From positions 1-8,660 of the forward strand of contig JAUWPI010000131.1 of the NCBI GenBank assembly GCA_030611665.1: a DNA stretch of 8,660 nt, written 5' to 3'. The position numbers and the translations under genes were made by a program. The stretch is from Candidatus Heimdallarchaeota archaeon (GTDB lineage: Archaea > Asgardarchaeota > Heimdallarchaeia > Heimdallarchaeales > Heimdallarchaeaceae). Numbering within the stretch: the first letter of the stretch is position 1; the number at the start of each line of letters is the position of its first letter. Shown one piece after another: positions 1,549 to 1,729 of this stretch. The notes under the pieces are model-generated. The model saw only the letters and a program-made list of their open reading frames with translations. It made no database searches and was not told the DNA's origin.

Positions 1549-1729
1549 CCTAGCAAGGATTTCAGGTTCGGAATGAGTCTGAGTGTTACCCCTTCACTAT
1601 GGCCGCGACGAATCGCAACTTATGACCGTTCCCAAGTCCTCTCGGAACATAGTACCAAGCCACACGTGGAAGGACTTAACTTTCCCGACCATCTGGAACG
1701 CGTCCAGATGTATCTCTGACCTTACTAGG
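1549..1729 (-). rRNA. circularly permuted 5S rRNA(-like) gene: 121-nt permuted core at 1560..1680, 49-nt 5' leader at 1681..1729, 11-nt 3' tail at 1549..1559
   Basis: The minus strand reads 5'-CCUAGUAAGG UCAGAGAUA [CAUCUGGA CGCGU UCCAGAUG] GUCGGGAAA. Next comes GUUAAG UCCUUCCAC G UGUGGCUUGGUACUAUGUUCCGAGAGGACUUGGGAACGGUCAUA A GUUGCGA, which is 5S helix II 3' strand, helix V, loop E, helix IV and helix I 3' strand. It continues UUCG, then UCGCGGC CAUA GUGAAGGGG UAACAC UCAG ACUCAUUCCGAAC CUGA AA, which is helix I 5' strand, loop A, helix II 5' strand and helix III/loop C. It ends UCCUUGCUAGG-3'. All hallmark archaeal 5S motifs are present (CCAUAG, ACUCAUUCCGAAC, AAGUUAAG, GGUACU/GGGAAC loop E, CCGAGAGG) but in swapped gene order. 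G+C is about 51% by my count, against very AT-rich flanks. Confidence 0.75.

Follow-up and report, generated by a model that had tools for sequence, protein, structure and literature searches.

The window, an 8,660-nucleotide stretch of a Heimdallarchaeota contig (JAUWPI010000131.1), carries on its minus strand a circularly permuted 5S rRNA gene, in which a tetraloop closes helix I and the discontinuity of the encoded RNA lies in helix III. The whole unit, 1730->1543, is probably a functional gene whose leader and trailer form bulge-helix-bulge (BHB) motifs, with predicted cleavage by the tRNA-splicing endonuclease EndA and a ligation that would yield a covalently closed circle of 121 nt. Permuted units of the same kind are found in many Asgard lineages, and their helices are maintained by compensatory changes. 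Literature searches agree with the statement of the initial annotation that no permuted archaeal 5S has been described: no description of such a gene was found in the searchable literature.

Gene Order and 5S Identity

The 5S part of the unit consists of three elements.

1613..1681, minus strand: 5S segment A, the 3′ two-thirds (5′-truncated RF00001 match, model positions 48-120; covariation)
1609..1612, minus strand: UUCG tetraloop closing helix I, where canonical 5S rRNA has its 5′ and 3′ ends (sequence; 44 homologous hairpins)
1561..1608, minus strand: 5S segment B, the 5′ third (3′-truncated RF00001 match, model positions 1-55; covariation)

On the minus strand, the 3′ two-thirds of the 5S rRNA (1681->1613) is encoded before the 5′ third (1608->1561), and UUCG (1612->1609) stands between the two segments. 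Segment A comprises the helix III 3′ strand (AGU), UAAG, the helix II 3′ strand, helix V, loop E, helix IV, and the helix I 3′ strand (GUUGCGA). Segment B comprises the helix I 5′ strand (UCGCGGC), loop A (CAUA), the helix II and helix III 5′ strands, loop C (..CAUUCCGAAC), and CUGAA. This permuted order had been claimed in the initial annotation, and the letters are exactly as described there, that is, GUUAAG...GUUGCGA at 1680->1613 and UCGCGGC-CAUA-GUGAAGGGG...CCGAAC-CUGAAA at 1608->1560; the halves matched by Rfam are swapped in the same way.

No 5S is reported by an Rfam scan of the window at the gathering score. A permissive RF00001 scan of the native order stops at 18.1 bits, where 38 are required, and its alignment leaves out 29 model positions (helix III and loop C). 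A contiguous full-length match of at least 38 bits is thus missing from the native order, as is expected because the gene is permuted. When the segments are scanned separately, two partial RF00001 matches in swapped order are obtained, as the initial annotation had predicted: 1610->1556 alone matches model positions 1-55 (25.7 bits, E 4.6e-4), and 1684->1611 alone matches positions 48-120 (21.6 bits, E 7.5e-3). All RF00001 model positions are covered once these separately scored segments are taken in canonical order. Other Rfam families of the 5S clan give no match to the locus, even at E up to 10.

A permuted-order search pattern matches the window once and none of 200 shuffles. The conserved loop motifs are seen in the window as CAUA in loop A, CCGAAC in loop C, and GUACU / GGGAA in loop E. 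GUACU, GGGAA, CAUAG, and CGAAC are set by the search pattern, so their invariance in the alignment of homologues is built in; columns that are invariant independently of the pattern include both A's of UAAG, the CG that follows helix II, and the U bulged from helix IV.

Covariation and the Helix I Cap

The initial annotation had suggested looking in relatives for the same arrangement and for compensatory changes, and both are present. Across 52 homologous units, 86.2% of the cells are paired, compared with 36-42% in slid controls, and compensatory double changes occur at 29 of 34 pairs; the observed values are reached by 0 of 500 shuffles. The covariation score of the 52 sequences is 0.586, whereas that of the slid controls does not exceed 0.146. 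Covariation is found in all five helices and supports the three-domain structure (helices I-V). In addition, RNAalifold applied to 21 non-Heimdall sequences independently recovers helices II, III, IV, and V. Helix I varies in length and is misaligned by MAFFT and RNAalifold, so it was analysed sequence by sequence. The hairpin is closed by a loop in 44 of 44 distinct homologues, and in 29 of these the loop is a YNCG tetraloop; three further loops are GUAA, GCAA, and GUUA. The cap is nearly always 3-7 nt long in the 44 hairpins.

A thermodynamic fold of 1681->1560, which is 1 nt longer than the 121-nt product, recovers only 14 of the 34 expected pairs. Folds of this type say nothing useful about an rRNA that is bound by proteins and has non-canonical loops, and those of the present unit lack the CGGG/CCUG helix described below; the structural argument relies on covariation for these reasons.

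Predicted Transcription Unit and BHB Motifs

The permuted core is flanked by the following elements, in the order of transcription.

1753..1770, minus strand: probable archaeal promoter, TATA-like UUAAAAA (1759-1753) preceded by AAUAGUAAAC (sequence; conserved in relatives)
1720..1730, minus strand: outer processing stem, leader strand GCCUAGUAAGG (paired with 1558-1548 in the MFE fold; covariation)
1713..1719, minus strand: outer BHB, leader side, UCAG (1719-1716) and the 3-nt bulge AGA (1715-1713), predicted cut 1714/1713
1688..1713, minus strand: leader hairpin element AU(A)-CAUCUGGA-CGCGU-UCCAGAUG-GU, 8-bp core 1710-1703 / 1697-1690 (conservation; covariation)
1681..1687, minus strand: inner BHB, leader side, CGGG (1687-1684) and the 3-nt bulge AAA (1683-1681), predicted cut 1682/1681
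1559..1566, minus strand: overlapping trailer-side BHB strands; inner, CCUG (1566-1563) and AAA (1562-1560), predicted cut 1561/1560; outer, CUGA (1565-1562) and the bulge AAU (1561-1559), predicted cut 1560/1559
1548..1558, minus strand: outer processing stem, trailer strand CCUUGCUAGGU (MFE fold; covariation)
1543..1548, minus strand: T6 tract, probable archaeal transcription terminator (sequence; relatives)

The TATA-like UUAAAAA lies about 26 nt upstream of G1730, at which transcription would start. The block CCAAUAG(U/C)AAA..UUAAAAA is kept at the same upstream distance in Heimdall-type relatives, and an oligo-T tract follows the stem in most of them; termination is predicted at T6. One promoter-like element and the T-tract bracket the whole unit, with the 3′ part upstream of the 5′ part in a single predicted transcription unit. 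The permutation and the permuted core of the initial annotation are confirmed, whereas its account of the surroundings needs revision. The second segment was said to run straight into T6, but an 11-nt trailer strand (1558-1548) intervenes and pairs with the leader (1730-1720). The conserved 8-bp leader hairpin (1710-1690) between promoter and GUUAAG was also lacking. Nor was it noticed that leader and trailer form BHB motifs with a nested hairpin, that the product is probably circular, or that the arrangement extends over Asgard archaea.

Both flanking structures are conserved. The outer stem is 96.7% paired over 33 Heimdall-type units, with compensatory double changes in 10 of its 11 pairs. 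The leader hairpin element measures 24-26 nt in 38 of 43 Heimdall-type units and shows compensatory changes in 6 pairs of its core (e.g., CAUUUGGA/UCCAAAUG and CAUCUAG/CUAGAUG). Its two closing pairs are weak, being formed in 23/33 and 12/33 units.

By definition, a BHB has a 4-bp helix at its centre, one or two bulges of 3 nt, and helices longer than 2 bp on its flanks (PMC3978253, PMC4731332). In the window, the outer motif conforms to this definition, with an 11-bp stem, UCAG/CUGA paired at 4/4 positions, and the bulges AAU and AGA. NCAG directly adjoins the outer stem in all nested units and is always followed by 2 nt and then by the A that starts the hairpin element, while the distance from CUGR to the outer stem is exactly 3 nt in every nested unit. 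The first pair of the outer 4-bp helix is broken in 8 of 33 units. The inner motif consists of CGGG/CCUG (4/4 paired) with two AAA bulges, and its flanking helix is the leader hairpin with the weak closing pairs. CGGG/CCUG is paired in 33/33 units, and the equivalent 4-bp helix covaries over the Asgard lineages (CGUG/CACG, CCGG/CCGG, GCCG/CGGC, CGAG/CUCG, and CCAG/CUGG). The window clade thus appears to carry a nested signal, and the nested architecture with its fixed spacings is present in 38 of 43 Heimdall-type units.

Outside the Heimdall group, relatives carry one BHB only, with a flanking helix of 5-14 bp. When units with a simple BHB (outer helix of 5-14 bp adjoining a 4-bp helix and 3-nt bulges) were subjected to an unconstrained search for the best BHB, in-silico ligation gave CGAAC-N9-AAG in 31 of 33 units and 10 nt in the other 2. 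The inner motif of the window, cut and ligated in silico, gives the same canonical 9-nt spacing, which is the Rfam consensus for CGAAC to AAG. The junction shifts by up to 2 nt between lineages; the product length remains constant. Cleavage after nucleotide 2 of the bulge is the rule for tRNA introns, and here it is matched by the internal consistency of the products. The mature RNA is predicted to start at A1681 and to end at A1561. On Heimdall-type units, the unconstrained search returned spurious motifs, and a dedicated nested parse was used instead.

The motifs depart from a strict BHB in two respects. In the window clade, the inner 4-bp helix is not adjacent to the two-stranded outer helix and the closing pairs of its flank are weak; the inner BHB is therefore a relaxed one, and the two-step order proposed below is conjectural. 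In all lineages, the leader side faces 5S loop C instead of a continuous helix, which makes the motif a relaxed bulge-helix-loop form on the exon side. In MFE folds of the unit, the precursor, and junction mimics, the outer conformer prevails and CGGG/CCUG is not predicted.

Distribution among Asgard Archaea

In genomes, 54 of 67 matches to the permuted-order pattern are this gene. The 13 without an upstream 5S-like anchor, from bacterial and Nitrososphaerales/Nitrosocaldus MAGs, are regarded as chance. In metagenomes, at least 43 of 59 matches are this gene; among the 16 that failed the filter, about four (L068, L098, L100, and L107) are permuted units truncated by the end of their contig, and the others resemble chance matches. 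Genome and metagenome matches combined yield 70 distinct core sequences, and the record titles name Heimdall-, Jord-, Odin-, Baldr-, Njord-, Frey-, Hel-, and Thorarchaeota. One Heimdallarchaeota contig is syntenic with the window and about 87% identical to it, and the locus is syntenic in three relatives at 80-88% identity. The unit has a DUF5752 reading frame as neighbour, whose exact protein sequence is not on record, probably because the start listed for it is wrong.

CP084166 and CP084167, the first closed Heimdallarchaeum genomes, contain two permuted copies each; Wu et al. (2022) could not predict a 5S gene in them. In their second copies (L020 and L042), a simple BHB adjoins the core and the homologous hairpin lies outside the BHB, whereas the cores of both copies are nearly identical. 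Another relative (L033) has tandem permuted copies. At the gathering score, Rfam finds no 5S in 18 related loci, and the permuted order probably explains the unannotated 5S genes of Asgard archaea. Some published descriptions of Asgard MAGs list "a 5S rRNA gene" with the calling method unstated.

The 22-mer that would span the junction in canonical order, CAUUCCGAACCUGAAAGUUAAG, is absent from 241 million metagenome DNA records, a collection that holds 18 permuted units with the 3′ end of this 22-mer. The evidence against a canonical copy comes from these records and from the closed relatives; for the window organism itself the analysis covered the 8,660 nucleotides of the window, and a canonical copy elsewhere in its genome may exist. 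A canonical 5S gene elsewhere with a relic here, or an assembly artefact, had been named in the initial annotation as possible refutations; as far as they are testable, both fail, given about 100 independent contigs (including long-read closed genomes), the missing canonical junction, and the two closed genomes in which their authors could predict no 5S gene.

Proposed Processing and Alternative Explanations

From its own promoter, the unit would be transcribed into a precursor of about 188 nt, whose leader and trailer would pair into the BHB motifs on which EndA, the tRNA-splicing endonuclease of archaea, acts. EndA would cleave after nucleotide 2 of each 3-nt bulge, and an RtcB-type ligation would follow. 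This would join ...CCGAACCUGAA (A1561) to AGUUAAG... (A1681) and rebuild helix III with an AA bulge, the expected product being a covalently closed 5S rRNA with helix I permanently capped by UUCG. In the window clade, two steps are envisaged. The outer BHB (11-bp stem, UCAG/CUGA, bulges AGA and AAU) would first circularise the RNA, with CCUGAAA|AUACAUCUGG as the ligation junction; the inner BHB (CGGG/CCUG, two AAA bulges, and the leader hairpin as flank) would then excise a 33-nt insert. A single three-way junction containing the inner BHB in the primary transcript was considered and rejected. Its geometry is poor, as the trailer-side bulge would have to hold the whole outer stem, and the two-step model was adopted for this reason.

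The circular product has to be weighed against other fates of the RNA. The gene might be permuted and functional and its RNA linear: EndA or other nucleases would trim the ends, ligation would not follow, and a nick would persist in the AA bulge of helix III. The evidence on identity and covariation fits such a molecule equally well, and a final 5S rRNA of permuted form is known from brown-algal mitochondria. However, only 3 bp would hold helix III on either side of the nick, and the flanks form exact BHBs whose standard cuts restore the canonical spacing in 31 of 33 simple-class units, a precision that has no obvious purpose unless the ends are ligated. Moreover, when a helix keeps EndA products together, archaea normally ligate them, as is seen for tRNA exons, 16S and 23S circles, and SRP RNA. 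An unligated RNA is thus considered unlikely. A linear nicked RNA with a UUCG-capped helix I was the model implicit in the initial annotation and resembles the organellar permuted 5S rRNAs.

If ligation does occur, the circle could still be an intermediate that is reopened at the helix I loop to give an ordinary linear 5S rRNA with canonical ends. Permuted tRNAs mature by way of a circle, which is afterwards cut open at the acceptor ends, and archaeal 16S circles are reported to be re-linearised. Permuted tRNA genes carry an intervening sequence of 7-74 nt at this point; by contrast, the helix I caps are nearly all short and mostly YNCG, loops of a kind selected for stability, without a spacer or a recognisable processing site. 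No nuclease is known to open a cap loop of this type. The former ends being joined by a tight tetraloop, reopening of the 5S circle is unlikely, and we rate it a little below the unligated RNA.

Another alternative concerns the window clade and the size of the circle. Use of UCAG/CUGA as the sole BHB would leave 33 extra nucleotides in helix III, and this reading was rejected as the main model and retained as a rival only: the leader hairpin would be kept as a helix III expansion segment in a 154-nt circle. The outer BHB has the better canonical geometry, its 11-bp stem being contiguous with the 4-bp helix and its bulge exactly 3 nt, it corresponds to the MFE conformer, and the leader hairpin covaries. 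A long insertion is present in the 5S rRNA of Halococcus. Large expansion segments occur in Asgard rRNAs (PMC7594248). Nevertheless, C(A/G)GG and AAA are conserved just upstream of GUUAAG and pair with CCUG in 33/33 units, which is unexplained if the inner motif is unused. In the L020 and L042 second copies, the hairpin must be removed, and their cores are nearly identical to those of the first copies. The helix III bulge is also a protein-binding site. Retention of the insert is accordingly rated improbable, below both alternatives above.

A locus without function, left over from a tandem 5S duplication that has decayed, or a chimeric assembly is effectively refuted: tandem duplication with loss of the outer parts is a plausible origin of the arrangement (L033 has tandem permuted copies), but the unit recurs on the independent contigs of many studies and in two closed long-read genomes, with compensatory changes in all helices, a conserved promoter and terminator, synteny in three relatives, and the canonical-order junction absent from the metagenome collection.

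Significance

With the 121-nt circle as the preferred reading, a broader proposal, to which we give an even chance, can be formulated. The 5S rRNA in Asgard ribosomes would be a covalently closed circle that the tRNA-splicing endonuclease and a ligase produce from the transcript of a permuted gene, an old trait common to Heimdall-, Odin-, Jord-, Baldr-, Njord-, Frey-, and Hel-type lineages, to which the Heimdall clade would have added a nested splice that circularises the RNA and then excises the 33-nt insert. If true, it would provide the first 5S rRNA that is obligately circular and the first case of a permuted rRNA gene beyond the organelles. The structure of the gene makes rejoining, and probably a permanently circular 5S rRNA, a prerequisite for a contiguous helix III, and the nested BHB would represent a natural example of splicing for which circularisation is a precondition. 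The ligated 22-mer CAUUCCGAACCUGAAAGUUAAG is absent from metagenome DNA; its presence in a metatranscriptome would therefore be direct evidence of ligation.

Asgard archaea are the closest known archaeal relatives of eukaryotes, and the spread of the permuted gene over their lineages bears on the traits of the archaeal ancestor of eukaryotes. The linear, canonical-order 5S gene of eukaryotes would then be a reversion or would come from a lineage that was never permuted. Gene order (permuted or canonical), junction position, and BHB type (simple or nested) provide discrete characters for Asgard phylogeny. A permuted-order model would recover 5S genes missed by standard tools, which bears on MAG quality criteria that require a 5S.

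Comparison with Known Systems

The mitochondrial 5S rRNAs of brown algae and other stramenopiles are permuted (Valach et al. 2014, PMC4267664), and in both cases a closed hairpin replaces the open-ended helix I. In the mitochondrial molecules, the three-way junction is the site of the ends, and a linear RNA in permuted order is the end product, without BHB or rejoining. Here, instead, the break lies in helix III and the flanking BHBs predict that a continuous helix III is restored, so the gene does not fall into the mitochondrial class.

In archaea, circular pre-16S and pre-23S rRNAs derive from BHBs, and circular 23S rRNA occurs in mature ribosomes (PMC12918454); permuted 23S rRNA is reported in Pyrococcus and Thermococcus (PMC7758197; bioRxiv 10.64898/2026.03.23.713588). 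These large rRNAs follow the route predicted here, in which EndA cuts a BHB of the processing stem and the ends are ligated into a circle, and they demonstrate that a circular rRNA can persist in ribosomes. Their genes, however, are canonically ordered and only the RNA becomes permuted, whereas here the gene itself is permuted. In a 2026 paper, circularisation is stated for 16S and 23S "but not 5S rRNAs", which leaves 5S as the one archaeal rRNA described as maturing without it. Low-abundance circular forms of canonical 5S rRNA in Sulfolobus solfataricus and Pyrococcus abyssi are cited in bioRxiv 10.64898/2026.03.23.713588. These are circular archaeal 5S molecules, but they come from canonical-order genes, without a BHB, in low quantity and with uncertain significance.

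Permuted tRNA genes are known in Cyanidioschyzon merolae, other algae, and Thermofilum pendens (Soma 2014, PMC3978253). They resemble the present gene in that the 3′ half lies upstream of the 5′ half and a BHB or relaxed BHB is formed at the leader-trailer junction, and the tRNA passes through a circular intermediate. In some of them a BHB intron is present as well, a parallel to the nested arrangement. Unlike the tRNA circles, which are reopened at the acceptor ends across 7-74 nt, the 5S unit has its former ends joined by a tight tetraloop.

In Thermoproteus tenax and T. uzoniensis, the SRP RNA gene is permuted and its transcript is matured through a leader-trailer BHB, a splicing endonuclease cut, and ligation (Plagens et al. 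2015, eLife, PMC4731332), the circular molecule being the functional form (PMC4731332). In both systems, a universal structured RNA was missed in annotation owing to a permuted gene with a leader-trailer BHB. The present case differs in that the RNA is 5S rRNA, a component of the ribosome, and in that many Asgard lineages are involved rather than one crenarchaeal genus. It also differs in the apparent second, nested BHB of the window clade with its 33-nt insert, and in that its processing is predicted from sequence.

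Identity and layout of the 5S locus

The minus strand of the window carries a genuine circularly permuted 5S rRNA gene that is conserved and has bulge-helix-bulge (BHB) processing signals, the BHB being the substrate of the archaeal tRNA-splicing endonuclease EndA. The 3′ two-thirds of the 5S (segment A) is encoded first and the 5′ third (segment B) second. The initial annotation had claimed such a gene, and the matches of its halves to Rfam, its relatives and its covariation support and extend that claim. On re-reading of the minus strand, the coordinates and strings reported for the locus proved correct and the elements named are present; the pairing of leader with trailer and the leader hairpin had been overlooked.

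Features of the 5S locus, as read from the sequence
1759-1753, minus: TATA-like box, UUAAAAA
1730-1720, minus: leader stem strand, GCCUAGUAAGG
1719-1713, minus: outer helix strand and bulge, UCAG-AGA
1710-1690, minus: leader hairpin, CAUCUGGA-CGCGU-UCCAGAUG
1689-1681, minus: inner helix strand and bulge, GU-CGGG-AAA
1680-1613, minus: 5S segment A, GUUAAG...GUUGCGA
1612-1609, minus: loop UUCG
1608-1560, minus: 5S segment B, UCGCGGC-CAUAG...CAUUCCGAAC-CUGAAA
1559-1548, minus: trailer stem strand, U-CCUUGCUAGGU
1548-1543, minus: T-tract T6, with U1548 common to T6 and stem

About 22 nt ahead of the outer stem's first nucleotide, at 1753-1775 of the window and at corresponding positions in Heimdall-type loci, stands a conserved block, CCAAUAG(U/C)AAA(N)UUAAAAA, which points to a common BRE/TATA promoter whose transcripts would begin exactly where the processing stem does.

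Over the whole window, Rfam at its gathering threshold reports tRNA-Ser alone and no 5S, and ARAGORN concurs on the tRNA-Ser. Under permissive settings, the native order reaches 18.1 bits against RF00001 (threshold 38), by an alignment needing deletion of 29 model positions, namely helix III and loop C. Scanned separately, 1610->1556 gives a truncated match to model positions 1-55 (25.7 bits, E 4.6e-4) and 1684->1611 to positions 48-120 (21.6 bits, E 7.5e-3), scores to which helices I and II, with one strand in each piece, do not contribute. Together these matches tile the whole model with the order swapped, as had been predicted.

Distribution and relatives

A search pattern specific to the permuted order, GTACT-N17-GGGAA-N{16,42}-YCATAG-N{23,27}-YCGAAC, occurs once in the window and in none of 200 shuffles. 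In GTDB (one genome per species) it matches 67 loci, 54 of them clearly permuted 5S, from records titled Heimdallarchaeota, Jordarchaeia, Odin-, Baldr-, Njord-, Frey-, Hel-, Thorarchaeota and ‘Promethearchaeati’; the other 13, in bacterial and Nitrososphaerales/Nitrosocaldus MAGs, are not related to this gene and were taken as chance matches. A metagenome collection yielded 59 loci, at least 43 of which are permuted 5S, and both sources together hold 70 distinct core sequences. Sequence identity of 80-88% to three Heimdallarchaeota contigs (L007, L052, L002), with synteny extending over the flanking genes, places the window in a Heimdall-group Asgard archaeon.

Three contigs may be mis-binned or bear outdated taxonomic labels: L006 (DATKTP010000169, titled Candidatus Deferrimicrobium), L058 (titled Thermoproteota) and L022 (titled Thorarchaeota) carry a permuted 5S nearly identical to Hel-type L030, to Jord-type L019 and L047, and to Heimdall-type L051, respectively. 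Another locus, L033 (CAZYCQ010000018.1, about 1019-1700), holds at least two tandem permuted units and a further segment-B core upstream, with an N run inside the array. Its units are independent, because every copy's leader pairs with its own trailer, and the array illustrates how the permutation could have arisen by tandem duplication.

Neighbourhood of the locus

The tRNA-Ser(GCU) at 3373-3455 (+) has a long variable arm and keeps its synteny with the 5S locus in the closest relative, L007 (3428-3507); in the closed Heimdallarchaeum genomes, too, the permuted 5S has tRNAs no more than a few hundred nt away. About 600 bp of the window (2708-3309) are missing from L007. They contain a 129-aa ORF (2823-3212, minus) whose match to TnpB/Cas12f-like proteins is limited to their C-terminal TNB domain, and look like the remnant of an IS200/IS605-type insertion between a membrane-protein gene and the tRNA-Ser. 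A 518-aa ORF (4294-5850, minus) with a Cas12f1-like TNB domain (E 1e-15) probably encodes a full-length TnpB-like protein. The match of a 111-aa ORF (3483-3818, minus) to the VIT1 iron-transporter family is confined to the family's C-terminal half (positions 117-213 of 214), and the 75-aa ORF upstream of it (3931-4158) has no Pfam match; truncation or disruption of the VIT1-like gene may explain this, or a wrong ORF call.

Structure under selection

The permuted 5S structure is under selection. Scored over 52 aligned units, it has 86.2% of cells paired, versus 36-42% with partners slid by 1-3 columns, and 29 of 34 pairs show compensatory double changes. Covariation scores 0.586, versus at most 0.146 for slid partners, and these values were reached in none of 500 shuffles. 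Some of the mispairing that remains is due to a shift of the helix II bulge in particular lineages and to MAFFT misalignment of helix I. De novo folding of 21 non-Heimdall sequences with RNAalifold recovered helices II, III, IV and V, with 22/26 pairs compensated. This covariation, together with conservation of the gene in relatives and synteny with Heimdallarchaeota contigs, excludes a relic or an assembly artefact.

The proposed tetraloop-capped hairpin at helix I is also borne out: examined sequence by sequence, all 44 distinct variants form a hairpin of 6-13 bp. The loop is YNCG in 29 (UUCG 15, UACG 5, UGCG 4, CUCG 2, CACG 2, UCCG 1), and three further loops are GUAA, GCAA and GUUA.

For the window's own genome, the evidence on a canonical copy is indirect. 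None of 241 million metagenome records matches the canonical-order 22-mer expected for the clade, CATTCCGAACCTGAAAGTTAAG, and 18 permuted units ending in CATTCCGAACCTGAAA and then the trailer are present among them. Rfam at gathering score finds no 5S in 18 related Asgard loci with the permuted gene (132 kb), and Wu et al. (2022) reported that the 5S gene could not be predicted in the closed Heimdallarchaeum genomes CP084166 and CP084167. “A 5S rRNA gene” has been listed, by a method left unstated, for Candidatus Jordarchaeum madagascariense, Borrarchaeum weybense and Kariarchaeum pelagius (PMC9723677; bioRxiv 10.1101/2020.10.19.343400); these three calls may be partial HMM hits, and Jordarchaeia contigs found by the pattern scan carry the permuted form, missed by Rfam at gathering score. 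The permuted locus is very probably the functional 5S gene.

Predicted splice signals outside the Heimdall group

In non-Heimdall lineages, leader and trailer form a textbook BHB. The Odin-type locus L025 has the leader GGUAGUAUCG-CGUG-AAA-GUUAAG and the trailer ...UCGAA-CACG-GAA-CGAUACUACC, which together form an outer helix of 10 bp and a central one of 4 bp (CGUG/CACG), both strands carrying a 3-nt bulge. Archaeal tRNA introns are as a rule cut behind the second nucleotide of the bulge; the corresponding cuts made in silico, followed by ligation, produce CGAACACGGA|AGUUAAG, the canonical 5S string. The best BHB, as defined in PMC3978253 and PMC4731332, was searched without constraint in every unit. 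Among units whose outer helix of at least 5 bp adjoins the central helix, the CGAAC-to-AAG spacing in the predicted product is exactly 9 nt in 31, as in the Rfam consensus, and 10 nt in 2.

The central helix covaries among lineages (CGUG/CACG, CCGG/CCGG, GCCG/CGGC, CGAG/CUCG, CCAG/CUGG, CAAG/CUUG), and the junction moves by up to 2 nt (ACGGA|AGU, ACGGAA|GCU, ACGGCAG|UCA) while product length is kept. A moving junction with constant product length is otherwise hard to explain, which argues that the BHB is cut and the ends joined. Because loop C, lacking a continuous helix, stands opposite on the 5S side, the motif is a relaxed bulge-helix-loop form, also usual for tRNA introns (Soma 2014, PMC3978253). 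Maturation of the permuted 5S by BHB cleavage and ligation is likely, and the mature RNA is moderately likely to stay circular. A linear nicked product fits some of the evidence less well, as does a circle reopened at helix I, since the stable tetraloop sits where the former 5S ends were and speaks for a helix I that remains closed.

An apparently nested signal in the window's clade

Among 43 distinct Heimdall-type units, 38 share a fixed nested architecture. An outer stem of 7-12 bp directly adjoins NCAG, which pairs with CUGR, and the trailer bulge is exactly 3 nt; the leader has exactly 2 nt, then a 24-26-nt hairpin element starting with A, which abuts C(A/G)GG-AAA-GUUAAG.

Pairing in the nested signal (33 units)
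Outer stem: 96.7% of cells paired; 10/11 pairs compensated
Hairpin core: 6 pairs compensated; 88% of cells paired over the whole hairpin
Inner helix CRGG/CCUG: 100% of cells paired; no double changes inside the clade
First pair of the outer 4-bp helix: paired in 25/33 units, broken in 8
Two hairpin-closing pairs beside the inner helix: weak, paired in 23/33 and 12/33 units

The UCAG and CGGG helices are mutually exclusive, as they compete for overlapping parts of C-CUG-A. In a two-step reading, the outer BHB would form in the primary transcript and be cut at AG^A (1714|1713) and AA^U (1560|1559), and ligation would give a 154-nt circle. This joining would bring the trailer-side AAA bulge to the hairpin, creating the inner BHB, CCUG-AAA-hairpin-CGGG-AAA. 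Cutting at 1561|1560 and 1682|1681 with religation would then excise a 33-nt insert (A1560 plus 1713->1682), leaving a 121-nt circle (1681->1561) with the computed junction CCGAACCUGAA|AGUUAAG. This reading fits all the fixed spacings. Minimum free energy (MFE) folds speak against it, favouring the outer conformer and lacking CGGG/CCUG. The fold of the window also pairs leader UCGGGA (1684-1689) with loop C UUCCGA (1567-1572) over 6 bp, a pairing that is probably fortuitous, being lost in relatives with CAGG for CGGG.

Retention of the 33-nt hairpin in the mature RNA is likewise in poorer agreement with some of the evidence. The closed Heimdallarchaeum genomes lend support to the two-step reading. 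Both contain two permuted 5S copies apiece, with nearly identical cores and differing leader architectures: one (L050 in CP084166, L027 in CP084167) is nested as in the window, and in the other (L020, L042) a simple BHB adjoins the 5S core and the homologous hairpin lies further out in the leader. The hairpin kept outside the simple BHB, beside nearly identical cores, identifies it as leader and not mature RNA. The nested two-step pathway remains a tentative, slightly doubtful proposal for the window's clade, and its order is evenly balanced against variants with the same or a nearly identical product.

Comparison with known systems

The initial annotation was aware of no described permuted archaeal 5S, and searches of open-access papers and bioRxiv likewise found no description of a permuted or circular 5S from a permuted gene in archaea or Asgard archaea; a 2026 paper states that archaeal circularisation covers 16S and 23S “but not 5S rRNAs”. 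Low-level circular canonical 5S rRNA occurs in Sulfolobus and Pyrococcus, without a BHB (as cited in bioRxiv 10.64898/2026.03.23.713588). The permuted mitochondrial 5S rRNA is linear, with its ends at the three-way junction (PMC4267664). Also among the closest known systems are permuted tRNA genes (PMC3978253), circular or permuted archaeal 23S rRNA (PMC12918454, PMC7758197, bioRxiv 10.64898/2026.03.23.713588) and the permuted SRP RNA of Thermoproteus, with its BHB, EndA cleavage and circular product (PMC4731332). BHB-processed permuted RNA genes are known; here the principle extends to a universal rRNA, in the archaea most closely related to eukaryotes.
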